Origin: an uncultured bacterium
GTDB taxonomy: Bacteria > Patescibacteriota > Minisyncoccia > Phycocordibacterales > GWA1-40-21
DNA length: 64,000 nt
Direction of reading: 5' to 3'
NCBI GenBank assembly: GCA_903832855.1
Contig: CAILDB010000003.1
Span: 15,398-79,397 of the forward strand
A model generated the notes under the pieces. That model saw only the letters and a list, made by a program, of their open reading frames with translations, searched no databases and had not been told where the DNA came from. This document shows, in pieces, positions 4,207 through 60,247 of this stretch; position 1 is the first letter of the stretch, and every line of letters starts with the position of its first letter. Both the position numbers and the translations under genes were made by a program.

Positions 4207-4246
4207 CCCCGTAGTGAACCGAGCCTTCGAGGTTCTACTACTGGGG
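4207..4246. repeat. Short copy of palindromic repeat family PR1 (CCCCGTAGTGAA...TTCTACTACTGGGG)
   Basis: Imperfect inverted repeat 21 nt upstream of the uvrB start codon. The arm sequence is shared with copies at 7732, 32646, 33287, 38496, 50710, 53678 and 60227. Confidence 0.5.
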
Positions 4247-4324
4247 TTTGACATACAAGATACGATTATGTTAGATTTTACAAGGAAATGCAAGTACACC
4301 ACAACAAGACAAAGGAGAAATGAA

Positions 4325-4960
4325 ATGGAACGCAAAGGAATAATTGGCTGGGTAAACCCTTATAAAAAGGGCGGTCCGCCTTCGGGACCAGAAAAACGTG
4401 ATGGTGAACAACCAAACGATGGGAATGTTCTGATGAATCGGTTCCTCAGAATGTCGCCATCAATGAGATTCCGGCTTACAACGAAAATGCCGGACGGCAG
4501 ACGGACAGAGCGTTGCCCAGTTCAGGAACGCATCCAGGCCAGAATCAAGAAATTCGCTTGGACAGATGTACCTGAGGAACAAACTGGCTTCCTTAACACA
4601 TTGAGCCAGTTCTTCTCGCCATGGATGATCGTGGACGGCCTTACAAAGGGTGAAGCCCGTCTGCTACACCTCATCGCCATGCACTTTCAAGGCAGGGCTA
4701 TGAGCGGGATTTATCATCCAAAGGAATGGCGATATAAGAAAGGAAAAAGGATCACTCGGGAGCAATTCATGACTGGCCTCGCAAAGTTCATGAGAAGTAT
4801 GATTGCTACAGGTGGGCTCGTATCTGAAAAGAAAGTACGCACTTACCCCAATATCGGTCTAATGTTTTCCCCCCGTGATTGGGCAACTGTAGAGAGGGTT
4901 ATCGAGGGAAAATATTTCTACCAACTCATCGAGTTCATTAATACTGGCCTCAAACACTAA
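4325..4960 (+). CDS. Hypothetical protein, in a GC-rich insert (ORF-track frame opens at 4214)
   Basis: Open frame 4214-4960. The in-frame ATG at 4325 is preceded by AGGAG at 4313-4317. The 5' part of the long ORF overlaps the PR1 hairpin, so a later start is likelier. No recognisable domain. G+C is visibly higher than in uvrB or tgt. Confidence 0.5.
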   Translation: MERKGIIGWVNPYKKGGPPSGPEKRDGEQPNDGNVLMNRFLRMSPSMRFRLTTKMPDGRRTERCPVQERIQARIKKFAWTDVPEEQTGFLNTLSQFFSPWMIVDGLTKGEARLLHLIAMHFQGRAMSGIYHPKEWRYKKGKRITREQFMTGLAKFMRSMIATGGLVSEKKVRTYPNIGLMFSPRDWATVERVIEGKYFYQLIEFINTGLKH

Positions 4961-4977
4961 ACAGTCACCAGACTGTC

Positions 4978-5010
4978 GCACCACGCAATCCAGCGTGGTG
5001 CTTTTTTATT
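4978..5010 (+). terminator. Rho-independent terminator
   Basis: GCACCACGC-aatccag-GCGTGGTGC followed by TTTTTTATT. Confidence 0.6.
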
Positions 5011-5094
5011 GCAATTGACGACAAAAATAATCGTGCTAGTATGTAAAAAGAAGGAAGAGTTCTCCTTAAACAAAGCAAAAGAAAGAAGGTGGGT

Positions 5095-5478
5095 ATGAAG
5101 AAAAAAGAGAAGGAACTGACTCCTGAGCAGAAAGTGGAATTGCTCAAGGAATTCGACGAGGCAATGAAAAAGATCGTCCTGCCCGTAGGCGTATTTTTTG
5201 CGGTAATCAGTCGCGGGCCCAAGAGTGGTATCGATAAAGGTGTAATTATTAGCGTCAGAGAACATGGCTGTTCCTGGTTGTTCACGGACATAAATCAGCA
5301 AAAAGTCCTGAAACAAGGAGGTACGAAACTACTGTTGAAGGATGCGGGTGCATTAGAAAAAAAGGCACGTGCCTCAATTCGGCGAAAATTGAAAAAAAAC
5401 GGTTCGTACGAATTTTATGGACACGGCCCAAGGTGCACTGCAGTCAGAGAGGTTCTCTTCAACACATTCAACCTCTAA
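5095..5478 (+). CDS. Hypothetical protein (GC-rich insert; ORF track starts at GTG 5089)
   Basis: 127 aa from ATG 5095 (MKKKEKELTPEQKVELLKEFDEAMKK...). Preceded by GAAGGTGG, with a candidate TTGACG...TAGTAT promoter around 5020-5050. No known domain. Confidence 0.5.
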   Translation: MKKKEKELTPEQKVELLKEFDEAMKKIVLPVGVFFAVISRGPKSGIDKGVIISVREHGCSWLFTDINQQKVLKQGGTKLLLKDAGALEKKARASIRRKLKKNGSYEFYGHGPRCTAVREVLFNTFNL

Positions 5479-7654: not shown

Positions 7655-7731
7655 AATTTTAAAATACGACTATTAATAATAGTTACCAGTATATCACAAT
7701 GAAAACTTTTACAAAAGCAAATATGTTGATA

Positions 7732-7799
7732 CCCCGTAGTGAAATTTGCCATTGATTTTTAAAAAGTTGAACTTTTTGATGGCAAATTCTACTACGGGG
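7732..7799. repeat. PR1 palindromic repeat (CCCCGTAGTGAAATTTGCCAT ... ATGGCAAATTCTACTACGGGG)
   Basis: 21-bp arms form a near-perfect inverted repeat around a 26-bp spacer. The right arm is immediately followed by TGATATAAT (7801-7809) and the ATG of the next gene at 7815. Confidence 0.6.
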
Positions 7800-7814
7800 T
7801 GATATAATGTTTAT

Positions 7815-9046: not shown

Positions 9047-10039
9047 TTATTTTAAATATTTTTCAATATTCGCTAAATGCTCGAGATATGTGACGGCATA
9101 ATGCATATTACCATCCTTATCAGCAATGAAATACAAATATTTTGTTTTAGTTGGAGTTACAGCAGAAATAATTGCGTCAAGTCCTGGATTTGATATTGGT
9201 GTTGGTGGAAGCCCAAGATGTGTGTAACTATTGTATGGGGAATCTATTTTTAAATCATCAGGAGTAATATCAAAAGTTCCCTTACCATTTATATATTTAA
9301 ATGACACATCTACCTGAAGTGGCATTTTCAAGGATATTCTCTTCCAAAGAATTCCAGCAATAATTTCTCTCGTCTCGGTCGTCCTCGCCTCCCCTTCCAA
9401 AATTGAGGCCATCTTAATCACATCACTAATTGGTTTTTTAAATGCGATAATTTGAGAATTTACAGTATCAAGTCTTTTCGTAAAAGTATTTTCCATAATA
9501 CTGATAATATCTGCAACACTTTGGTTTGGTAGAAAATTGTATGTATCAGGGAAAAGATAACCTTCCTTTGGAGTAGCGAGTTTCAAAAATGTTTTTTTAT
9601 CAAAACTTGGTATTTTTTTTACAAGAATATCAGCAATTTCTTTTACATCTAGTCCTTCTGGAATCAAGACCTTAATAGTGATGAGATCATACTCTCCATT
9701 TGCTAGTTTAGAAACAATTTGAAAAAGATTTTGACTTTTTTGCAAATAATAATCCCCCGCCATTATTTTTCCACGCATCAAAATATATGAAAAAGATTTA
9801 AACCAAAATTCTGATTTAATAATCCCTTTTCCCTTCAAAATAGTCGCAGTGGAAGAAAGCGTCTCACCTTTTGAAATTGTCAAAACAATATCTACCGGAA
9901 AATCTTTTGGAGCAGAATTAATAGAAAAAATAAAAACAACCAGAATGACAATTACTACTGCAATTTCCCCAAACAAAATAAAATTTTTACCAGTAGGTCC
10001 TGCATCCATATTATATAGGTAAATTTGAAGGTGCTTCAA
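9047..10039 (-). CDS. mltG: Endolytic murein transglycosylase MltG/YceG family
   Basis: 330 aa. N-terminal TM plus YceG-like domain (ASILEGEA...NPGLDAI). Confidence 0.75.
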   Translation of the reverse strand: MKHLQIYLYNMDAGPTGKNFILFGEIAVVIVILVVFIFSINSAPKDFPVDIVLTISKGETLSSTATILKGKGIIKSEFWFKSFSYILMRGKIMAGDYYLQKSQNLFQIVSKLANGEYDLITIKVLIPEGLDVKEIADILVKKIPSFDKKTFLKLATPKEGYLFPDTYNFLPNQSVADIISIMENTFTKRLDTVNSQIIAFKKPISDVIKMASILEGEARTTETREIIAGILWKRISLKMPLQVDVSFKYINGKGTFDITPDDLKIDSPYNSYTHLGLPPTPISNPGLDAIISAVTPTKTKYLYFIADKDGNMHYAVTYLEHLANIEKYLK

Positions 10040-11300
10040 ACTTTCTTGATGGAATTCTGGTCAATGTCGGTGTCTGAGAGACAATCTGACTAGGAAAGTG
10101 AAATAAAGTCGCAAGTTCTTCGGTGTTTAATATGAATGATTTTGATGGACCAAGATTCCTGTATGGTATTTGAAAAAATGAACGCAATTTGTAAGCATTG
10201 AACATATCCATTCTTAATTCCTCAGCATCACCCTGATATATGGATTTGAAAGGCCAAGGAAATATTCTTATTAAATCTTTTTGCCAATCATCAGTATCAG
10301 TTACATTTAATGGAACAAAACCATTAAGATTTGCTGAATTAAATGACTTCAAACACGAAATTGCAGAACTAATATAGTTTGGCTGAAAACTTTCCTTTTT
10401 AGCAAAATAAATAGTCCTAATTTTACAATCAAACGGCATTTTGTTTGCACTTCTCTCCACTGCAGCGATGGTCTCTGTCTGTACTTTTGTTGGACTTGGA
10501 ATTTTAGAAAATTTATCATCCTTTTCTATCTTCATAAAGTCAGGAATTGTCTCCATTTTTAATTTTTTGACAACATCCTTTATATCCTTCTTCCAATCTT
10601 TCTTACCCATCCATCTGCCATTTAAAAATCTTTTTTCTTCCTGATGTTTCTGTATGAGGATTTGTATCCAAGAATTTTCACCCTTTTTCATTGAGGCGAG
10701 AAATTCAAACAAAGAATTCAACGGATCTATTTTGTATTCGTCCTTCTGATCTGCATCAAGTCCATAATCAATGTATGTTTTTATTGGATAAGGGTCCGGT
10801 TTAGCCAGCCCATATTGTATCCCAAAATATGAGTATGTATCCGTATTATATTCAAACTTTTCTGTATAGTCTGCGACATCATTTATTTCTATGTTTGGAT
10901 ATTGAGCGTATAATTGTGCTTCAACCAAATTTTTGTATTTCTCCCAGGTCCAAATATAAATATGTATTTCTCCCTGATTTGACACAAACTCAAAAGAAAA
11001 CCATGGCTTAACTTTACCATCAAGAAACGCCTCAGTATAGGCCTTTGGTCCGTTCTGTGCGAGAAAGGAAAAAAATGTTTCCATTGAGACAGGTGACTTA
11101 AATATTTCCTTTGGGAGTTTTATTTCAAGTAAAACTTTTTTCATCTTATTCATAAATTTGAGCTGTGCATGTCGTAACCTCAGCATCAAGTAAACAAGAA
11201 TAAACATAATAGGCAGAGCAACAGGAAGAATAATTATTAAATAGTGAAAGACCACTGGAAACAGTCCTGTAGAAATTGATGATAAAAATTGGTTAAACAT
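10011..11300 (-). CDS. Hypothetical membrane-anchored protein
   Basis: 429 aa. N-terminal TM, no recognisable motif. AT-rich like the native genes. Confidence 0.5.
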   Translation of the reverse strand: MFNQFLSSISTGLFPVVFHYLIIILPVALPIMFILVYLMLRLRHAQLKFMNKMKKVLLEIKLPKEIFKSPVSMETFFSFLAQNGPKAYTEAFLDGKVKPWFSFEFVSNQGEIHIYIWTWEKYKNLVEAQLYAQYPNIEINDVADYTEKFEYNTDTYSYFGIQYGLAKPDPYPIKTYIDYGLDADQKDEYKIDPLNSLFEFLASMKKGENSWIQILIQKHQEEKRFLNGRWMGKKDWKKDIKDVVKKLKMETIPDFMKIEKDDKFSKIPSPTKVQTETIAAVERSANKMPFDCKIRTIYFAKKESFQPNYISSAISCLKSFNSANLNGFVPLNVTDTDDWQKDLIRIFPWPFKSIYQGDAEELRMDMFNAYKLRSFFQIPYRNLGPSKSFILNTEELATLFHFPSQIVSQTPTLTRIPSRKFEAPSNLPI

Positions 11301-32630: not shown

Positions 32631-32645
32631 TTAGATATTCTATCA

Positions 32646-32716
32646 CCCCGTAGTGAATTTTGCCATCAGGTTTTCAGAAAAACCCAATGTTTTCAAATGG
32701 CAAAATCTACTACAGG
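32646..32716. repeat. PR1 palindromic repeat (CCCCGTAGTGAATTTTGCCAT ... ATGGCAAAATCTACTACAGGG)
   Basis: 21-bp inverted arms. On the rseP strand the arm is followed by TGATAGAAT and then the rseP ATG about 15 nt on. Confidence 0.6.
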
Positions 32717-32734
32717 GTATCAAAAAAACTGAAA

Positions 32735-38495: not shown

Positions 38496-38631
38496 CCCGT
38501 AGTAGAATTTCAAATTACTGCCTTTCGTTTTTTACTATAGGGTTGCCATTTTATCGAAATTATCAACATATTAATTAGAGTTTCAAATTGTAAATAGGGC
38601 AGTAAAAAACAATTTGAAATTTCACTACAGG
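38496..38631. repeat. PR1 repeat, long-spaced form (CCCGTAGTAGAATTTCAAATT ... AATTTGAAATTTCACTACAGG)
   Basis: The right arm ends at 38631, and the priA ATG is at 38632. Confidence 0.55.
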
Positions 38632-40533
38632 ATGAAACTTATTGAAGTCATACCTATTTCTAGGGGCATACCAAAGGAGTCGTTGAACTATTTTTCGTCT
38701 GTTGCCGTGCCTGTGGGCTCGGTGGTGAAAGTTCCTCTTCGAAAGAAAATTATTCCAGCAATTGTCGTGTCGGAAAGAGATGTGGAAGAAGCAAAATCAG
38801 ATATCAAGAATTCTTCTTTTCCGCTCAGGAAAATTGAGAAAGCAAAATTCGCGAAATTTTTGACTTCGGATTTTGTGGAGGCCGGAAGAGAGACGGCAAA
38901 ATATTTTGCTGGCTCCACGGGCTCCGTTTTGTTTTCTTTGGTTCCAAAAGTTCTGCTTGAAAATGTGGAAAAAATAAAAATTCATAAGATTGAAGAGGCA
39001 GAAAATAAAAAAACTCAACATCATGAAAAATATGTTGTGCAGGCAACCGACGAAGAAAGATACGCAAATTATAAAAGTTTGATAAGAGAAGAGTTTGCAA
39101 AAAACTTGTCTGTTTTCTTTTGCTTGCCGACAATTCAAGATATTAAAAAAGCAACCGAAAAACTGCAGAAAGGAATAGAAAAATACACTTACATTTTGCA
39201 CGGTTCATTGAACGAAAAAGAAATAATAGAAACAGTCAATAAAATTCTCGCTGAAACACACCCTGTCTTGATCATAGGCACAGGAGGCTTTCTATCCATA
39301 CCAAGGTCCGACCTTGGCACTCTCATAATAGACAGAGAAAATTCTAGAGCATACAAAAATCAAGGACGACCATATCTAGATATCAGATATTTTGCGGAAA
39401 AGTATGCCGAACAAGCAAAAATAAAATTGGTATTTGGCGACTTACTTTTAAGGACGGAAACAATCTGGCGATTTAAAAATGGAGAGTTAGTAGAAATTTC
39501 TCCTTTGAAATTCAGATCACTTTCCACTATGACCGAGGAAATTATAGAAATGAAAGAAATTTCAGAAAATTCACTAGAGAAAAAGAAATTCAGAGTGATA
39601 AGTGACAGGTTGGAGGGCTTAATAAAGAAAAATATAGAAAATAACGAGCATCTTTTTATTTTTGTCGGTAAAAGAGGTCTCTCGCCTTCTGTCGTTTGCG
39701 CTGATTGCGGGACGATAGTGGCCTGTAGAACCTGTGGTGCTCATACCGTGCTTCACAAAGCATCGGAGGAAAACTTTTTCCTTTGTCATAAATGCGGAGA
39801 AAGGAGAAGTGCACTAGAAAAATGCGCAAAATGCGATAGCTGGAAACTCACGACTCTTGGAATTGGTTCAGAGCTCATTGAACAAATGCTTTTAGAAAAA
39901 TTCCCCAACCAAAAAATATTTAAACTTGACTCGGATAGTTCGCCAACACACAAAAAGGCCTCACAAATAATAGAAAAGTTTTATGCCTCTCCGCAAGGAA
40001 TTCTCATCGGTACAGAAATGGCACTTTTGTATCTTACAGAGAAAATTGAAAATTCTGCGGTTGTTTCAATGGATTCTTTTTTCTCAATTCCTGATTATAG
40101 AATAAATGAAAGAGTTTTAAATATTTTGCTTAAAATTAGGTCAATTACAGACAGAAATTTTATTATTCAGACAAGGGACTCTTCACAAAAGGTCTTTGAC
40201 TATGCTTCCAAAGGAAATCTCATTGATTTTTATAAAGATGAAATTTATATGAGAGAAAAACTCGGCTATCCACCTTTTTCTGTACTTATAAAAATAATAA
40301 TTGCCGGAACAAAAAATGAGGTTTTACAAAGTGTGGAATATTTACAAAAAGAACTCACACCATTTGAAATAAATGTTTTTCCTGCTTTCATCCCCGGAGC
40401 CAAAGGCAAATATGCCGTCAATGGAATTGTAAAAATCCCAAAAAAGGACTGGCCAAATGAAAAAATTCTCGGTGTCCTCAAAACCCTTCCACCAAACTTC
40501 TCGGTAAATATAGATCCGGAGAGTTTACTTTAA
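38632..40533 (+). CDS. priA: Primosomal protein N' (PriA)-like, with degenerate Walker A / DExH motifs
   Basis: ORF-track frame starts at 38614; the ATG at 38632 is the likely start. C-terminal CxxC zinc-binding cluster CADCGTIVACRTCGAHTVLHKASEENFFLCHKCGERRSALEKCAKC. Motif I is HGSLNEKE instead of GxGKT, and motif II is LIIDRENS instead of DEEH. Confidence 0.75.
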   Translation: MKLIEVIPISRGIPKESLNYFSSVAVPVGSVVKVPLRKKIIPAIVVSERDVEEAKSDIKNSSFPLRKIEKAKFAKFLTSDFVEAGRETAKYFAGSTGSVLFSLVPKVLLENVEKIKIHKIEEAENKKTQHHEKYVVQATDEERYANYKSLIREEFAKNLSVFFCLPTIQDIKKATEKLQKGIEKYTYILHGSLNEKEIIETVNKILAETHPVLIIGTGGFLSIPRSDLGTLIIDRENSRAYKNQGRPYLDIRYFAEKYAEQAKIKLVFGDLLLRTETIWRFKNGELVEISPLKFRSLSTMTEEIIEMKEISENSLEKKKFRVISDRLEGLIKKNIENNEHLFIFVGKRGLSPSVVCADCGTIVACRTCGAHTVLHKASEENFFLCHKCGERRSALEKCAKCDSWKLTTLGIGSELIEQMLLEKFPNQKIFKLDSDSSPTHKKASQIIEKFYASPQGILIGTEMALLYLTEKIENSAVVSMDSFFSIPDYRINERVLNILLKIRSITDRNFIIQTRDSSQKVFDYASKGNLIDFYKDEIYMREKLGYPPFSVLIKIIIAGTKNEVLQSVEYLQKELTPFEINVFPAFIPGAKGKYAVNGIVKIPKKDWPNEKILGVLKTLPPNFSVNIDPESLL

Positions 40534-41155: not shown

Positions 41156-41977
41156 CTACCTTAAATCATAGTGCACCTTGTTGCCATAACGAAGATCTAG
41201 ATGATTGAGTTTGCTTAGAAACGCTGTGCTTGTGCTGATGGCATTACTTTGCAACATTGCGTCAATGTCACTCAAGCTTGTTTCAAATGTTTGAGATTCG
41301 TTGAAATTTATTTGTCCGCCAGCTTCAAGGTCAATTTCGTATTCATTATCGGGAAGCGATGACAAACTGACTGGTGCGAAACCAAGCTCTTTCAATTTAT
41401 TCATAAAAGCATAAAGTCGTAAAAATTTTGGATTGCCAACATAGGTATTGCCGATTGGATTTTCAAAAGTTCCGCCATAAAAATACAAAAAAGAATTACC
41501 AATAATTTCCGGAGCTTCCGTGTAAATAAATCCACTCTTGTCCAAAAAGTAACAGCTCTTTACTCCCCTTTCTTTGGACTCACACCAAATGCCGACAGGT
41601 GTCCTTTCCGAAATAATTATTTTAATAGAATTTTTGCCCGTAATTCTCACCAACGCTCTATCCACTTTTAGAAAATCCTTTTTCAACGAATTTCCTATTG
41701 TCATCCACGGTAGAATCAAAACATTAGAACGAGAAAAAAGCCCAAGGTATCTGCCATCCAAAGTCTTTTGCACATTTTGAGCCAAGTCATCTGCATTCAA
41801 GGTGGTCATCCCAACTACCTCTATCTTTTTTACATTCAAAACTCCGCTTCCAGAAAACCACGCAAGTGTTCCAAATAAAACAATAAATAAAACCAAAAAC
41901 CAAAGAAATTTTCTTCCCCAAATTATTCTCCTTCTCTGTTTCAGAGAATGTCTTATGTCTCTCGGCGAATTTGTCAT
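41156..41977 (-). CDS. ftsQ: Cell division protein FtsQ/DivIB-like
   Basis: 273 aa. N-terminal TM, then POTRA-like and FtsQ beta domains. Confidence 0.65.
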   Translation of the reverse strand: MTNSPRDIRHSLKQRRRIIWGRKFLWFLVLFIVLFGTLAWFSGSGVLNVKKIEVVGMTTLNADDLAQNVQKTLDGRYLGLFSRSNVLILPWMTIGNSLKKDFLKVDRALVRITGKNSIKIIISERTPVGIWCESKERGVKSCYFLDKSGFIYTEAPEIIGNSFLYFYGGTFENPIGNTYVGNPKFLRLYAFMNKLKELGFAPVSLSSLPDNEYEIDLEAGGQINFNESQTFETSLSDIDAMLQSNAISTSTAFLSKLNHLDLRYGNKVHYDLR

Positions 41978-53252: not shown

Positions 53253-53634
53253 GTATTGCCCTTGCGCCTATAAGCCGAATTCTGTCCACTCGTTTTTACA
53301 CGAGATGTACGATTATTTGTCTGGGCCAAATGTTGCCACTTGGCTCGTGCGACAACTCCTCTTGCGAGGCACGTGTCTTGCTCTCAGGTAAGGATTTAGC
53401 CGTTGCATTTTTGCCTTTCGACAAAACTATTCCCGAAGGAACCCTAGCCTTTCGGCATCGGCGTTTCTGTTCGCACCTCTTAGATTTCTCTATGCGGGCG
53501 TTACCCGCTACCCTTGTTCGCGGAATTTTTCGGCTCTGTCTCAGAGCCAAAAAATTCCGCGAGCCGAGAGTTCGGACTTTCCTCCAAACATCACCGAAGT
53601 GATGTTCAGCAATCGTCCAGCGCAATGGCAAAAA
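53253..53634 (-). ncRNA. rnpB: RNase P RNA, bacterial type
   Basis: Minus strand contains GGAGGAAAGTCCGAACTC (P4 5' strand), AAGGGTAGCGGGTAACGCCCGC, AACAGAAACGCCGATG and ACAGAATTCGGCTTAT (P4 3' strand). P1 pairs TTGCCATTGCGCTGG with AGGCGCAAGGGCAA. Both ORF-track ORFs here (53240..53602 + and 53296..53655 -) are spurious. Confidence 0.8.
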
Positions 53635-53677
53635 ACATAATATCATAGCCCCCAAAATAACGCAAGTTTTACCTTGA

Positions 53678-53813
53678 CCCCGTAGTAGATTTTTGGCTTG
53701 ATTTTTTTTGGGCCGACACGAGTATTCTATCCATATTTATAGCCATTTTTTATATTTTGATACACAATTGCTTAGTTGAAAAAAATCGGCCAAAGCCAAA
53801 AATTCACTACAGA
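53678..53813. repeat. PR1 repeat, long-spaced form (CCCCGTAGTAGATTTTTGGC ... GCCAAAAATTCACTACAGAG)
   Basis: Arms are about 100 bp apart, between the rnpB 5' end and the promoter of the 53906 operon. Confidence 0.5.
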
Positions 53814-53814
53814 G

Positions 53815-53843
53815 TTGACTTTTAACCTCAAAGGTGCTATTAT
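53815..53843 (+). promoter_or_regulatory. Canonical sigma-70-type promoter (TTGACT-17-TATTAT)
   Basis: TTGACT at 53815-53820 and TATTAT at 53838-53843, upstream of the GC-rich operon. Confidence 0.5.
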
Positions 53844-53905
53844 CTAACTTGGAGTTCTTTGACACAAAAAGTGTCAGTAGAAGCTAAAAATGTCGGTAAA
53901 CAAAA

Positions 53906-55183
53906 GTGCGAAAGCACAAAGGAGAAGACGCAATGAAAACGCTAGTATTCACGCTGTTCTTGATCTGTGCAATTATTATTGTACTTGCACCATTCGTGCT
54001 AATTGTAATGTGGGCCTATAAAAAGGCAGACATTCCACTTGGGCCAGAGACAAACTGGTTCGCTAAATGCCGCCCTGGTAAGTTTATGGGCGTCCTCTTA
54101 GGAGGAGACATCTCGAAATGGTTGAGTAATGTAAATGGGTTGAGCATAAAAGGTAAGGAAGGAATGTTCACCTATAACGAGGGTGACGACCCTACCATCA
54201 AGTTGATCGAGTCTGAGAATGAGGAAGAAGGTGGCAAAATCGGTCATCTTCCAAAACGCTTCTATGAGGCTCTGAATCAACCGCCCAAAAGAACATCGCT
54301 AGCCATGTCTGGTATCCATTGGATCTGGTTTAAACCAGTTGGTGGAATTCTTAAGAAGATGTCTAGGTGGCTCGAGTGGGTGGAAGTCTTGTCGGACGAA
54401 AAGAAAGACAAGAAAGAGACAGGGAAGAGTAACCAGATACTTGCGCAAAGAGTGAAACTACGCGAGGAGTTCATTTGGGACTTCTCCATCGGAATGCAGG
54501 TGTTGATGGTTGCTCTCGATATTGAGGCTGGTAAGGCAGACCCTGTAACTACGGGGGGCAAGAAAATGATTGGGGATCTGGTGGCTGAAAAAATCGCACT
54601 AGATTTCTATGCCGTGTTCACAGTGTACATCCTTTGCCCGTACAAGGCGGTGATCATCGCTGACTGGGTCAAGGCACTGAAAGCAGAATGGGAAGCAGTT
54701 TGTACAGATTATGCAAAGGCACATTCTGTTGATCAAGCCTTCATGAAGGAGCATCTCGATACAGAAGTCATCGATAAACTCTTCCAGAGTAACCCGAAAC
54801 TCCTCCAGAAGTACGGGTTCGTGATTGGCAATATTCAGTACGAAGGTGCTGGATTTAGCGGAGATAACGAAAAATTCCGTGATGCTAGTGGTATGGCATG
54901 GATGGCTCAACAGGAAGCTGCGGCGATTAAAACCAAGGCAGATGCTTCTGCTTATGAGATATTAACCAAAGCAACTGCAACAGGAAAAGCGAACAGGCTA
55001 GAAATAGCCGGCCTTCTAAAAAACCCAGAAATGGGGAAAGCGCTATTGTGGCAACGCGCCGTCAGCGGTCACAAAGGACCTTTGTTCCTCGGAAAAGGGT
55101 CCGGAAATGGCATGCTGATACAAGACACAGCGGAGAAGGAGCCCGCTCCTGTACCCACAACAAAAGAAGGAGTTAAGAAATGA
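53906..55183 (+). CDS. Hypothetical membrane-anchored protein, possibly SPFH/band-7-like (GC-rich)
   Basis: 425 aa. N-terminal TM (LVFTLFLICAIIIVLAPFVLIVMWAY). The C-terminal Ala/Glu-rich helical region (AQQEAAAIKTKADASAYEILTKATATGKANRLEIAGLLKN) is reminiscent of SPFH C-termini. Weak assignment. Confidence 0.45.
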   Translation: MRKHKGEDAMKTLVFTLFLICAIIIVLAPFVLIVMWAYKKADIPLGPETNWFAKCRPGKFMGVLLGGDISKWLSNVNGLSIKGKEGMFTYNEGDDPTIKLIESENEEEGGKIGHLPKRFYEALNQPPKRTSLAMSGIHWIWFKPVGGILKKMSRWLEWVEVLSDEKKDKKETGKSNQILAQRVKLREEFIWDFSIGMQVLMVALDIEAGKADPVTTGGKKMIGDLVAEKIALDFYAVFTVYILCPYKAVIIADWVKALKAEWEAVCTDYAKAHSVDQAFMKEHLDTEVIDKLFQSNPKLLQKYGFVIGNIQYEGAGFSGDNEKFRDASGMAWMAQQEAAAIKTKADASAYEILTKATATGKANRLEIAGLLKNPEMGKALLWQRAVSGHKGPLFLGKGSGNGMLIQDTAEKEPAPVPTTKEGVKK

Positions 55184-56187
55184 TAGCAAACATGTGGAGT
55201 ATGATATCCCCATGGATATGGTGGGTATTTACAATCACCATTGTGGTGCTTGTGACCTATCTTTGCTGGTGGTTCCGACATGTCATACGAAAAAAGTGGC
55301 AGTGGATTGTGAAGGTTCCATGGGGTCTCTTCATAAAACCAATTGGTCACAGTGTGAAGATAAAAATAAGCGAAAAGTTTTCGCGTCTTCGCACAAAGGT
55401 GCCGGTCATGACGATCAAGCAACCCGAGAAGAAGTTCTCGTGGTGGTTGCTAATCGGTGTAGGGTTCCTTGTCCTCATCATTTGGGGACTCTGGCGCCTT
55501 GCACTTAAAGTCGTGGGTCTTGGACACACGATAGCATCAGGAGGAAATGGTGGCTGGGGTATGTTGTGGGTACTGCTGCCCATAGCCATTGCAGGATTCC
55601 TGGTTGTACAACTGGTCCGTGTGTTCAAGCCAGCCAAAAGGAAAGAAGAAAAAAAAGCCGACGAGCTGGCAGATGAACAGACCAATAGACTGAGAGGAAA
55701 AGATTCCGCCAAGTCGAAAGTCGGCTGGGTGGGAGTGATTCTCAAGGTAGTAGGTTGGTTGATTCTCGCCGGCCTTGTGGTTGATATGGTCTCATATGTG
55801 AGATCGTGTAATGATGATAAGGTCAGGGTTGAAATGGCGCAGGTACAGGAGCAAGAAAAATCAACCCTTGGTGATTGGACATACTCATGGGAGTTACCAC
55901 CCGAGGGAGGTATTGGTTCCTGCCAAATAATAGAAAAGGGCTGGTGCAAGGCCCGAGTTCAAGAAGATAACATCAACCAGTGGCTGATCGTCGCATCCGA
56001 CGAATACAAACATAAAATCCATATGGTTGGAAAAAGAAATGGAGAAAAAGGGTCTGGACACTGGACCCAAAATACAGGTGAGTATGGAGATTGGGAATTA
56101 GAGAGGGTTTCTCGAAGAAGATGGGAGGGTTGGGCAACCACCTCAGAACATCCGGGAAAAAAGTTAGACATTGCCCTCTACAAATAA
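55180..56187 (+). CDS. Hypothetical polytopic membrane protein (GC-rich; ATGA overlap with upstream gene)
   Basis: 335 aa. Four predicted TM segments, a Lys/Glu-rich loop and a ~130-aa Trp/Gly-rich soluble C-terminal domain. No known domain. Confidence 0.45.
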   Translation: MIANMWSMISPWIWWVFTITIVVLVTYLCWWFRHVIRKKWQWIVKVPWGLFIKPIGHSVKIKISEKFSRLRTKVPVMTIKQPEKKFSWWLLIGVGFLVLIIWGLWRLALKVVGLGHTIASGGNGGWGMLWVLLPIAIAGFLVVQLVRVFKPAKRKEEKKADELADEQTNRLRGKDSAKSKVGWVGVILKVVGWLILAGLVVDMVSYVRSCNDDKVRVEMAQVQEQEKSTLGDWTYSWELPPEGGIGSCQIIEKGWCKARVQEDNINQWLIVASDEYKHKIHMVGKRNGEKGSGHWTQNTGEYGDWELERVSRRRWEGWATTSEHPGKKLDIALYK

Positions 56188-56195
56188 AGCAACCG

Positions 56196-56296
56196 GGACT
56201 GCCAGACATTCGTGTCTAGGCAGTCCCTTTTTTTGTAAAAAATTTGTTTTACAAAATACAAAACAGCCCGCCTGAGGCGGGCTGTTTTGTATTTTA
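56196..56296. terminator. Two tandem intrinsic terminator hairpins (bidirectional)
   Basis: GGGACTGCCagacattcgtgtctaGGCAGTCCC followed by TTTTTTTG, then AACAGCCCGCCtgaGGCGGGCTGTT followed by TTGTATTTT. Confidence 0.55.
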
Positions 56297-56303
56297 CTTT
56301 TTC

Positions 56304-56567
56304 TTAACCCTTTATTGTCCCCAAAATAAGATTTATTATTCCCAATACAGAAAACATTATGGCCATACCTACAAGACCCCATATCATACTACTCTTGCCA
56401 TTTTTCCTACCTTCTTCACTATCCGCTTTCCAAAGAAATTGTAATACACCATAAATAAAATAAACTGTCGCTAGACCAAACAGTACCCAAAGAATAGGCT
56501 CAATAATTTGAGTATTTATATTCTTCAAAAGTTGGTCAAAACTAATTCCTACAGTAGCAAAATTCAT
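56304..56567 (-). CDS. VirB2/TrbC-type T4SS pilin-like small membrane protein, paralogue 1 (no obvious signal peptide)
   Basis: 87 aa. Two hydrophobic helices separated by the charged loop KADSEEGRKNGK. Aligns with its neighbours: IYFIYGVLQFLWKADSEEGRKNGKSSMIWGLVGMAIMFSVLG. Confidence 0.5.
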   Translation of the reverse strand: MNFATVGISFDQLLKNINTQIIEPILWVLFGLATVYFIYGVLQFLWKADSEEGRKNGKSSMIWGLVGMAIMFSVLGIINLILGTIKG

Positions 56568-56617
56568 TTTGTTTAATGTAATTTCAAATTAATGAGAAAG
56601 AAAATTTTGTACGAGAA

Positions 56618-56986
56618 TTAGTGGAGATTTGATGGTAATTCTACTTTCTGTGCTGTCCCCCCCTCAGTAGTAAAGGTATTTTGTAAAACAGTCACAAGTC
56701 CCCAAATAGAGAATATAACAGCTATTCCTACTACTGCATAAATAATATTTGTCTTTGATTTTTTCTTTGCTTCCTCATCTCCAGCAATCGTGTATTGAAT
56801 AACTTCCCAAATAAAATACAAAATAGCAACAGAGCTCAATAAAGGAATACCCCATGCGACAACACCTGAAAAAAATGTCATCCATTTTCCAAGACCTGTT
56901 GATGGTATTTGCGTTGTTACTTGTGCAAATGCCAACATAGGAGAAAGAGTAACCAAACCTAACGAAGAAACTAATAATTTTTTCAT
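56618..56986 (-). CDS. VirB2/TrbC-type T4SS pilin-like protein, paralogue 2
   Basis: 122 aa. Signal peptide MKKLLVSSLGLVTLSPMLAFA, then helix, charged loop AGDEEAKKKSK and helix: IYFIWEVIQYTIAGDEEAKKKSKTNIIYAVVGIAVIFSIWGLVTVLQNTF. Confidence 0.55.
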   Translation of the reverse strand: MKKLLVSSLGLVTLSPMLAFAQVTTQIPSTGLGKWMTFFSGVVAWGIPLLSSVAILYFIWEVIQYTIAGDEEAKKKSKTNIIYAVVGIAVIFSIWGLVTVLQNTFTTEGGTAQKVELPSNLH

Positions 56987-57088
56987 AATCTTTCTAATAA
57001 ATTAAACCTAATAAATTAATAAACGACCTTATAATTCTACCATACTATTATACCATAACAAATATAGATATCCACAACCCAATAAACC

Positions 57089-57454
57089 TTAAGGTGTCGT
57101 GAGGTTATTAAGATCTATATTTGTTGGTATTTTTGTAGTACTATTTAAATCAAAAGTTTTTTGAAGTACTGCCACCAAACCCCATATAGAAAACACTACA
57201 GCGATAGCAATAACGCCCCAAAGCATAAATTGTTTACCCTCTTCTTTTTTTGTTGAGTCCTCTGCTCGTATAAATTTTATTACCCCCCAGATAAAAACAA
57301 TGATTAGCAAACCAGTAAGTATAGGAACAACGGGTTTAATAAACTGATTAATAACGACATTTTGCATCAAGTCCTTAAATGTATTGCTGACAGCAAAAGC
57401 AAAAAAGGGTGTAAGGCCAGAAATTAAAGCTAAAGAAATAATTATTTTTTTCAT
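57089..57454 (-). CDS. VirB2/TrbC-type T4SS pilin-like protein, paralogue 3
   Basis: 121 aa. Signal peptide MKKIIISLALISGLTPFFAFA. IVFIWGVIKFIRAEDSTKKEEGKQFMLWGVIAIAVVFSIWGLVAVLQKTF is about 55% identical to paralogue 2. Confidence 0.55.
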   Translation of the reverse strand: MKKIIISLALISGLTPFFAFAVSNTFKDLMQNVVINQFIKPVVPILTGLLIIVFIWGVIKFIRAEDSTKKEEGKQFMLWGVIAIAVVFSIWGLVAVLQKTFDLNSTTKIPTNIDLNNLTTP

Positions 57455-57457
57455 ATT

Positions 57458-57844
57458 TTATGGTTTTGTTATGGCATCAACCGTGCCTTTTATAATGACT
57501 GCGAGAACTTGTGCACCCAAAAGTAATGCAATACCGACGATGGTCCACAATAGCATATCGTGTGCTTTGGATATTTTGTCTGAATTTCCCATCGCCGAAA
57601 CGTATTTAAAACCGACAAAAACAAGTGCAAGAACACAGAGAACAGCTCCAACTTTTACAATTTCAGATAATGCATCTGATATAAACTTGATTAAGTCATT
57701 AGTTTTAAGAGGATTTGATATTCCCGTAGCACTTGATGGTTGTGCATTACCTGCTGCAAAAGACAGAGAAACACAAAACAATGTTGAAAGTATTATAAAT
57801 GCCATTAAAGAAATTGCTGTTTTTTTAAAAAAATTATTTTTCAT
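57458..57844 (-). CDS. VirB2/TrbC-type T4SS pilin-like protein, paralogue 4
   Basis: 128 aa. Signal peptide and helix-loop-helix core (VLCVLALVFVGFKYVSAMGNSDKISKAHDMLLWTIVGIALLLGAQVLAVII). Confidence 0.5.
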   Translation of the reverse strand: MKNNFFKKTAISLMAFIILSTLFCVSLSFAAGNAQPSSATGISNPLKTNDLIKFISDALSEIVKVGAVLCVLALVFVGFKYVSAMGNSDKISKAHDMLLWTIVGIALLLGAQVLAVIIKGTVDAITKP

Positions 57845-57846
57845 TT

Positions 57847-58257
57847 TTATGGTTTAAAAAATCTTAAATAATCTCCATTACCTGAAGCGAAAGTATTCAT
57901 TATAGTATAAACGATAAGCCACGCTCCTGCAACTAAAAGTATACCTGTAAAAATACTTCTAAACATATGCATTGCCGCCTCTCTTTCTGCTGGCTTATCT
58001 GGATGTGCAATGATTTTTGCTCCGGACCACATCATACCTATTGCAGCAAGTGGACCCGCAATTATAAGAAACCATTTTAATATAGCATTTATCATAGTGG
58101 TCAGATCAGAAAATGAGCAGGGCTGTTCTGGTGCTGGACCACCACAGGGAACCAAATTTGCTGCAAGAACCAAAACTGGTAAAAAGAAAAGCGCTGGCAA
58201 TACCCAAATTATTATTTTTCTAATCCCGTTAGAGATCTTTTGGTTATGAATTGTCAT
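57847..58257 (-). CDS. VirB2/TrbC-type T4SS pilin-like protein, paralogue 5 (divergent)
   Basis: 136 aa. Signal anchor, then AIGMMWSGAKIIAHPDKPAEREAAMHMFRSIFTGILLVAGAWLIVYTIM, the same helix-loop-helix topology. Confidence 0.45.
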   Translation of the reverse strand: MTIHNQKISNGIRKIIIWVLPALFFLPVLVLAANLVPCGGPAPEQPCSFSDLTTMINAILKWFLIIAGPLAAIGMMWSGAKIIAHPDKPAEREAAMHMFRSIFTGILLVAGAWLIVYTIMNTFASGNGDYLRFFKP

Positions 58258-60198: not shown

Positions 60199-60226
60199 GA
60201 TTATTTTTAATGTGTTAATTATACCA

Positions 60227-60247
60227 CCCCGTAATAGAATTTGCCAT
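60227..60247. repeat. Single PR1 arm (CCCCGTAATAGAATTTGCCAT) fused to TGGTATAAT on the methyltransferase strand
   Basis: The minus strand reads ATGGCAAATTCTATTACGGGG-TGGTATAAT-(20 nt)-ATG of the 59671..60198 gene. No partner arm was found. Confidence 0.35.

Follow-up and report, generated by a model that had tools for sequence, protein, structure and literature searches.

A GC-rich two-gene operon between rnpB and a VirB2-like pilin array in a Minisyncoccia bacterium: probably an inherited, fast-diverging SPFH-plus-partner envelope module

Within a 64-kb stretch of DNA from an uncultured bacterium of the class Minisyncoccia (here called the window; contig CAILDB010000003.1), two overlapping genes for membrane proteins lie between the RNase P RNA gene rnpB and an array of pilin genes, and differ markedly from the core genes in base composition. 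This locus raises the question of whether such a compositional outlier is a horizontally acquired island, as an earlier note on the sequence had proposed, or a long-standing resident, and of what its two proteins might do. The reading that we favour, with a probability of roughly two in three, is that the pair is a vertically inherited, rapidly diverging envelope module of this lineage of the ultra-small bacteria of the candidate phyla radiation (CPR)/Patescibacteria, made up of an SPFH protein and a membrane partner. The two genes are:

53933..55183, + strand: gene 1 with corrected start, 416 amino acids, divergent SPFH/Band-7 protein
55180..56187, + strand: gene 2, 335 amino acids, present in the list of open reading frames (ORFs)

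The G+C content is 46.6% for gene 1, 46.8% for gene 2 and 46.7% for the pair, compared with about 31-41% (~37%) for core genes, in agreement with the 45-50%, above that of native genes, given in the earlier note. At third codon positions the G+C fraction (GC3) is 0.496 for gene 1 (z +4.1) and 0.500 for gene 2 (z +4.2), relative to a reference of 37 core genes with a mean of 0.307, a standard deviation of 0.046 and a maximum of 0.370; the distance in relative synonymous codon usage (RSCU) from the 37 core genes gives z = 2.9 and 2.5, respectively. By both measures the pair is distinct from the core genes, showing the atypical composition and codon usage expected of a genomic island. The compositional boundaries are sharp and coincide with the ends of the two genes. 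The shift is greatest at two-fold degenerate sites, where C/(C+T) is about 0.5 instead of 0.26 and G/(G+A) 0.45 instead of 0.26; at the four-fold sites of gene 1 the shift toward GC is weak. Two other sources of the excess were considered and set aside: strand bias is rejected because GC3 is normal in miaA, topA and relA/spoT, which share the strand of the pair, and expression-linked codon bias is unlikely, the pilin and MreB genes, which we assume to be highly expressed, being poor in GC3.

The same excess can be followed in related loci, which are referred to here by L numbers. The GC3 of the pair is generally above that of the flanking genes in the lineages examined, whatever the GC of the genome, with the following values where the difference is clear:

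L013: gene 1/gene 2 0.33/0.30, flanking genes 0.14-0.26
L010: gene 1/gene 2 0.35/0.53, flanking genes 0.17-0.28
L019: gene 1/gene 2 0.40/0.52, flanking genes 0.17-0.30
L016: gene 1/gene 2 0.71/0.70, flanking genes 0.37-0.55

In L003, L008 and L020 the pair exceeds its flanks in GC3 by a small margin or overlaps with them. The G+C content of the pair scales with its host, from 29-37% in a 31% genome to 55-57% in a 48% genome. Since the GC3 excess recurs across lineages, a single transfer is insufficient to explain it; candidate explanations are biased gene conversion linked to recombination, the repeated replacement of alleles at a hypervariable slot, and some form of selective constraint.

The position of the pair recurs as well. 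Its immediate neighbours in the window are:

53255..53628, - strand: rnpB, bacterial RNase P RNA class A (92.7 bits, E = 9e-29, full-length model match)
56304..58257, - strand: array of five VirB2-like pilin genes (PF18895, T4SS_pilin), convergent with the operon

An rnpB gene is found between MurJ and the pair also in L003, L010, L013 and L019 (in L019 inverted relative to the other loci), and pilin arrays lie downstream of the pair in L003, L008, L009, L010, L013, L016, L019 and L020; the families of the window array were read on locus L001, which is there 100% identical to the window. MurJ, rnpB, the pair, the VirB2-like array, SBP, a methyltransferase and GyrA form a block conserved in 7 to 9 lineages, the last three genes being seen where the contig reaches far enough beyond the array. 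L016 has a different upstream neighbour and keeps the pair, the pilin array and SBP together. All gene 1 homologues with a readable downstream context are convergent to a T4SS_pilin array, so that the position of the pair beside a VirB2-like array is no accident, and the pairing of an SPFH gene with a partner is conserved in all loci read. Presence is not patchy: in every one of the related loci recovered (the eight listed above for their arrays), the pair occupies the same site. Scans for the locus in genomes and in metagenomes added one further locus each. The neighbours named in the earlier note are thus confirmed; its description of the operon as inserted next to them is not supported, the slot being the same across lineages.

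What sets the pair apart within this block is its rate of change. Amino acid identities between the window and its closest relative, L003, are:

GyrA: 92%
MurJ: 83%
MiaA: 82%
methyltransferase: 80%
SBP: 69%
pilins: 48-62%
gene 1: 58%
gene 2: 33%

The slot of the pair is shared by lineages whose GyrA and MurJ are 64-92% and 66-83% identical to those of the window. In the more distant of them (MurJ 66-75%) gene 1 is at 27-42% identity, and gene 2 is at the floor set by random alignments, as it is for all but the closest pair. When the identities of gene 1 are compared with those of core genes, the nearest relative and one sub-cluster are recovered, with weak rank correlations (Spearman 0.51, p = 0.05 and 0.13), and the divergence of gene 1 broadly tracks that of the core. 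The identities and the shared gene order argue that the pair is ancestral to the block and not a recent insertion, and that it evolves several-fold faster than its neighbours.

The two genes form a genuine operon. Its further parts, and gene 1 as it was first called, are:

53906..55183, + strand: gene 1 ORF in the earlier note, present in the ORF list
53815..53843, + strand: sigma-70-type promoter, TTGACT-17-TATTAT with extended -10 TG, 10/12 matches, conserved
53850..53932, + strand: predicted 5' untranslated region (5'UTR), ~83 nt, with conserved blocks, hairpin GTGC-GAAA-GCAC at 53906-53917 and Shine-Dalgarno sequence AGGAG at 53920-53924
56195..56234, + strand: intrinsic terminator 1, a 14-bp bulged G+C-rich stem (hairpin 56195-56227) with UUCG loop and T7 tail
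56253..56295 (approx.), no strand assigned: terminator 2, a long near-perfect palindrome, preceded by an A-run and followed by a T-run

Both reading frames of the earlier note exist and overlap by ATGA at 55180-55183. The start of gene 1 is most likely ATG 53933 rather than GTG 53906, because AGGAG lies 8 nt 5' of this ATG, homologues begin at a methionine aligned with it, public gene calls likewise give 416 amino acids, and GTG 53906 falls within a conserved hairpin (GYGC-GAAA-GCRC). This tetraloop hairpin stands directly 5' of the Shine-Dalgarno sequence, shows one compensatory change among relatives, and may be a regulatory or stabilising element. Gene 2 has a Shine-Dalgarno sequence of its own (GAAGGAG, 55166-55172, 7 nt before ATG 55180), and its start codon overlaps the stop codon of gene 1, an arrangement that couples its translation to that of gene 1. 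In all related loci, too, the partner gene overlaps the gene 1 homologue or lies close to it.

The promoter proposed in the earlier note is the best promoter-like site of the region, matching consensus at 10/12 positions with an extended -10 TG, although the number of such sites is not above chance (9 found against 7.2 expected). Far stronger evidence than the consensus match is its invariance in four diverged loci: the sequence TTGACTTTT...AAAGGTGCTAT[T/C]AT is unchanged where the proteins are 58-63% identical, and five loci (the window with L003, L004, L007 and L008) agree fully in both hexamers and the TG. From its position a transcription start giving the ~83-nt 5'UTR would follow. The two tandem terminators also hold up: both hairpins together fold at -60.3 kcal/mol (z = -12.1), with 0/200 shuffles as good, the automated terminator scan having missed the first owing to its bulge. 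Terminator 2 is probably bidirectional, as the flanking A-run and T-run suggest, and would also end the convergent pilin gene whose end is at 56304.

Directly upstream of the operon, as the earlier note had observed, lies a repeat with inverted arms:

53679..53814, no strand assigned: PR1, palindromic MITE-like (miniature inverted-repeat transposable element) element, 136 bp, with ~22-nt imperfect terminal inverted repeats

PR1 is bracketed by a duplication of TTGAC (53674-53678 and 53815-53819). Its site reads CCTTGAC-[element]-TTGACTTTT in the window, and L003, L004, L007 and L008, which lack PR1, read CCTTGACTTTT uninterrupted. By this comparison PR1 is a window-specific insertion into the -35 hexamer, which the 5-bp TTGAC duplication rebuilds; this copy, at 53.7 kb, is particular to the strain or species. 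As a later and separate event it is uninformative on the origin of the operon. Shorter copies of the family, sharing the terminal motif ACCCCGTAGTGAATTTTGCCA, are found at 7731-7800 and 32645-32718, and a position at 60226-60246 is also listed. The possibility that PR1 is a structured RNA was rejected, its fold z being only -1.4 and its Rfam matches being chance microRNA hits.

Two other histories of the locus have to be weighed against inheritance in place. Under the first, the pair would be a recently acquired foreign island, a GC-rich cassette from a GC-richer donor with the adjacent rnpB as integration site. This would account for the composition (GC3 z about +4 and RSCU z 2.5-2.9 against the 37 core genes, changing abruptly where the two genes end), for the adjoining RNA gene and MITE-like repeat, and for the great rarity of the family in databases. 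It does not account for a slot that persists, with rnpB, down to 66% identity in MurJ and 64% in GyrA, for a conserved promoter and 5'UTR, for gene 1 identities that broadly follow the core, or for an excess of GC3 that is repeated in other lineages and moves in step with the GC of the host. No integrase or transposase was found in the flanks, no direct or other repeats bracket the pair, the PHROG, viral-contig and phage searches were empty and gave no link to phages or plasmids, and the MITE-like element is the later insertion described above. We hold the island reading, and with it the claim of horizontal acquisition in the earlier note, to be very improbable and already largely refuted. 

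The second history keeps the slot ancestral and has its alleles swapped by recombination among related CPR lineages, in the manner of capsule/O-antigen and pilin-variation loci, the GC3 excess arising through GC-biased conversion or a GC-richer allele pool. It would fit the low identities of gene 1 (58%) and gene 2 (33%) where GyrA is 92% and MurJ 83%, the fall of gene 2 to the random-alignment floor except in the closest pair, the wide variation in partner length and number of transmembrane segments (one lineage lacking the C-terminal barrel), and the GC3 excess in the lineages examined; recombination could be anchored in the conserved flanks and promoter. It would fit, too, a second, paralogous SPFH-like-plus-partner pair in tandem in L003 (8226-9985) that encodes a protein of 340 amino acids with a weak Band_7 match and one of 246 amino acids with the same C-terminal barrel (31% identity, E = 1e-25), and that indicates duplication or cassette turnover at the slot. 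However, gene 1 groups the lineages roughly as core genes do, which fits fast evolution in situ equally well; the GC shift is strongest at two-fold and weak at gene 1 four-fold sites, which is not the simplest signature of biased conversion; and the sampled strains (L001, L002 and >50 contigs carrying P0001) have identical proteins. Such replacement is possible, though on balance unlikely; it overlaps with the favoured reading on function, differing from it solely in evolutionary mode.

The identity of gene 1 emerges only through its relatives. By itself the protein has no match in Pfam, NCBIfam, PHROGs or PADLOC, and none to Band_7 (PF01145) at E <= 1; a profile of three sequences gives no PDB match at E <= 10. 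Among 5.8 billion clustered proteins only two are close relatives, 63% and 58% identical and one of them from a Minisyncoccia metagenome-assembled genome, and a profile of gene 1 with these two homologues finds just 24 proteins among 1.84 billion representatives. Yet 10/26 members of the resulting family match Pfam Band_7 (best E = 1.8e-13), at least two of them (P0009 and P0015) reaching or exceeding its gathering score of 23.6 bits. Alignment of the close and distant groups with hhalign gives a probability of 99.9% (E = 6e-34 over 325 columns), and the distant group alone matches Pyrococcus horikoshii stomatin at E = 9e-19, as well as human stomatin, HflK and QmcA; these profile-profile comparisons link gene 1 to SPFH proteins by way of intermediate sequences. 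An AlphaFold2 model built from a 25-sequence alignment, with a mean predicted local distance difference test score (pLDDT) of 76, has the SPFH fold: an N-terminal transmembrane helix, a beta-rich region, an alpha/beta SPFH core and a helix of ~65 residues. When it was compared with the PDB by Foldseek, 36/36 matches at E <= 1e-3 were to SPFH cage proteins or the SPFH-related major vault protein, among them stomatin, HflK/C, prohibitin, erlin, flotillin, major vault protein and QmcA-YbbJ (8z5g), with a best E of ~2e-5 at probability 1.0.

Gene 1 thus encodes a highly divergent stomatin/flotillin-type SPFH/Band-7 protein, as had been guessed from its N-terminal transmembrane segment and Ala-rich helical C-terminus, both of which are confirmed. 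Its parts are a transmembrane segment at ~4-27 (the model has a helix at 2-33, the hydropathy scan a hydrophobic window at 8-26) that is conserved in homologues, a beta-rich SPFH region with an acidic insert of ~45 residues, an alpha/beta SPFH core at ~220-310, a coiled-coil helix of ~65 residues at 313-379, and a conserved C-terminal motif, LLWQRAVS-H-GPL-LG. Members of the family have 0-2 lysine or arginine residues before the transmembrane segment (0-1 in 11/12 members) and mostly 3-5 after it, from which the positive-inside rule predicts a short N-terminal tail outside and an SPFH domain in the cytoplasm. QmcA is reportedly oriented in the same N-out/SPFH-cytoplasmic way, as described by Chiba et al. 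in 2006.

Gene 2, in keeping with the earlier description, has four hydrophobic segments in the hydropathy scan (12-30, 86-104, 128-146 and 183-201) and a Trp/Gly-rich C-terminal domain at ~230-335. The lysine and arginine counts of its N-terminal tail, three loops and C-terminal domain are 0, 15, 2, 12 and 19, and the positive-inside rule predicts a cytoplasmic position for the two long basic loops and a position outside the cell for the C-terminal domain; the loop charges of homologues of the same architecture with three or four transmembrane segments put the C-terminal domain outside too. Its structure model tentatively makes this domain an 8-stranded meander beta-barrel, at low confidence. 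Direct scans of gene 2 (Pfam, PHROGs, NCBIfam, PADLOC) gave nothing significant, and the structure search gave no significant fold match. A single-sequence homology search was empty as well, which is a database artefact, since the 90%-identity cluster of gene 2 is represented by a fragment of 139 amino acids; a profile search did recover two homologues. Every gene 1 homologue is followed by a multi-transmembrane protein, most with a beta-rich C-terminal domain of 100-200 amino acids, and the barrels of the window, L003, L009 and L010 share a weak but recurrent similarity, that of L019 being seen by eye. The possibility that a diversity-generating retroelement drives the variability of gene 2 was rejected, there being no template/variable repeat of the operon anywhere in the window.

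A working picture of the module can be drawn by analogy with solved SPFH complexes. Gene 1 would be a QmcA/stomatin-like scaffold, with its short N-out tail, single anchor, SPFH domain and long coiled coil, and may assemble on the cytoplasmic side of the membrane as a ring- or cage-shaped oligomer. Gene 2 would be a four-pass protein whose two lysine/arginine-rich cytoplasmic loops could contact that cage, making its transmembrane bundle and basic loops the client, and its small C-terminal beta-barrel would be displayed outside the cell, perhaps under diversifying pressure like the neighbouring pilins. Together they could form a membrane microdomain complex that follows the logic of SPFH-NfeD or HflK/C-FtsH with a partner other than NfeD. 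That the partner's barrel, which would be exposed, diverges as fast as or faster than the VirB2-like pilins is consistent with a surface or host-interaction role, and only the conserved adjacency suggests a functional link of the pair to pili, including the shared envelope or secretion function put forward in the earlier note.

Several points weigh against this picture. The SPFH assignment is transitive at the sequence level, gene 1 alone matching no Pfam, NCBIfam or PDB profile, and its fold matches have low TM-scores (0.2-0.3), which we attribute to the long helix and the insert. The model of gene 2 is poor (mean pLDDT 50, 52-77 in the barrel region, from a 3-sequence alignment), its Foldseek E-values are not significant (>= 0.03) and the matches are generic, and the partner in L013 is short and without a barrel. 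Topology is based solely on the positive-inside rule and a simple hydropathy scan; contacts between the two proteins and joint action with the pilins are what we infer from the arrangement; and adjacency is weak evidence of shared function because the contexts may all belong to one clade with conserved gene order. The module does not, moreover, explain the GC3 excess.

The closest known systems are the two-gene operons QmcA-YbbJ of E. coli and PH1511-PH1510 of archaea, which likewise join an N-anchored SPFH protein with a coiled-coil C-terminus to a multi-pass partner that ends in a small beta domain. By sequence and by fold, gene 1 is matched best by stomatin, PH stomatin and QmcA, and the N-out/C-in orientation predicted for it resembles that of QmcA. 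One may therefore ask whether this is a canonical SPFH-NfeD pair, gene 2 being an extremely divergent NfeD whose C-terminal OB-fold would share a membrane face with the SPFH protein and bind it there. The architecture matches, QmcA-YbbJ (8z5g) is among the fold matches of gene 1, the operon coupling of such pairs is well documented (PMC2636767, PMC8656257), and gene 2 is, like NfeD proteins, a multi-transmembrane protein in an operon with an SPFH gene (four segments, ATGA overlap). However, neither the C-terminal NfeD OB-fold domain (PF01957) nor any other Pfam family is detected in gene 2 or in eleven partner proteins of related loci, and gene 2 is for this reason not classed as NfeD. The window partner also lacks a detectable ClpP-like protease domain, and its beta domain is modelled with eight strands and predicted on the outer face. 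An NfeD identity seems improbable to us. Gene 1 differs from QmcA and PH1511 in its ~45-residue acidic insert and in falling below Pfam Band_7 detection, and both window proteins change at a far higher rate than SPFH proteins of the housekeeping kind. HflK/C-FtsH, flotillin, prohibitin and erlin share with gene 1 the SPFH fold, long helix and conserved C-terminal segment that are the elements of ring or cage building; HflK/C has the opposite orientation to that predicted for gene 1, and no FtsH or second SPFH paralogue accompanies the pair in the window.

The barrel invites a different comparison. Small ligand-binding, calycin-like 8-stranded barrels (avidin, FABP, YceI, hemophilin/TbpB, Cap15) have 4-14% identity to the gene 2 domain and no sequence similarity, and a barrel from a low-confidence model is not claimed as a member of any of these families. 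The match to Cap15 would allow an anti-phage or abortive-infection module, in which a Cap15-like transmembrane-plus-beta-barrel effector is gated by the SPFH scaffold and arms-race evolution drives divergence. That match is generic to 8-stranded meander barrels, though, and neither protein matches PADLOC (at E <= 1) or PHROGs, no sensor or nucleotide-signalling genes lie nearby, and the fixed position in a housekeeping block is unlike that of defence islands; we give this reading almost no weight. Somewhat better placed, but still speculative, is a tighter version of the link to pili: the SPFH cage and barrel partner would belong specifically to the stand-alone VirB2-like pilin apparatus of these episymbiotic bacteria and co-evolve with it, either as a membrane platform for assembling or anchoring pili or as a host-recognition receptor that works with them, with hypervariability and GC3 kept up by a clade-conserved, locus-specific regime of recombination or mutation. 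The five-gene PF18895 array of the window is of the same kind as the 441 VirB2-like arrays described in Patescibacteria, which have 2-11 genes and low paralogue identity and one of which is essential in the cultivated patescibacterium Ca. Southlakia epibionticum (PMC12102498). That paper does not mention an SPFH neighbour of the arrays (0 occurrences of SPFH or band 7), and our literature search found no paper tying SPFH proteins to Patescibacteria surface structures. In Agrobacterium, components of the type IV secretion system (T4SS) co-fractionate with SPFH proteins and are not dependent on them (PMC8656257), which cautions against over-reading the adjacency of pair and pilins.

Some other features of the window deserve mention. 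The five-gene array stands alone in the 64 kb: it is the only T4SS-related feature adjacent to the pair, and no virB4, virB6 or other T4SS gene was found within the window. A second GC-rich island at 4214-5478 (+ strand), between uvrB and a tgt-like gene, consists of two ORFans of 248 and 129 amino acids, whose GC3 is 0.49-0.50 (z about 4) and whose codons show the two-fold-site signature of the SPFH operon; neither a Pfam family nor viral relatives were found for them, and the other GC-rich ORFs of the window have no Pfam family. The ORFs at 38614-40533 (+ strand, 639 amino acids), 41156-41977 (- strand, 273 amino acids) and 10011-11300 (- strand, 429 amino acids) are of normal composition and have no Pfam match at E <= 1e-5. 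The window rnpB scores just under the Rfam gathering score of 100, and a first default search missed it; rnpB falls below this threshold also in L010 (5377-5846, 98.9 bits) and L013 (5255-5713, 68.4 bits), so that default annotation would miss the RNase P RNA of this lineage.

By these comparisons the locus is a version of the known SPFH-plus-partner theme that is both new and highly divergent. It adds an SPFH subfamily that is invisible to Pfam, and a new partner family in place of NfeD, to a class of scaffolds that is universal and poorly understood in bacteria, and it does so in the CPR/Patescibacteria, whose surface machinery for life attached to a host is largely uncharacterised. A GC3 excess at a syntenic, fast-evolving locus in genomes of 31-48% G+C means that atypical composition need not imply horizontal transfer, and could signal a locus-specific evolutionary process deserving study. 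Should the pair indeed work together with the pili, it would offer a handle on how VirB2-like arrays are assembled where no T4SS lies nearby.

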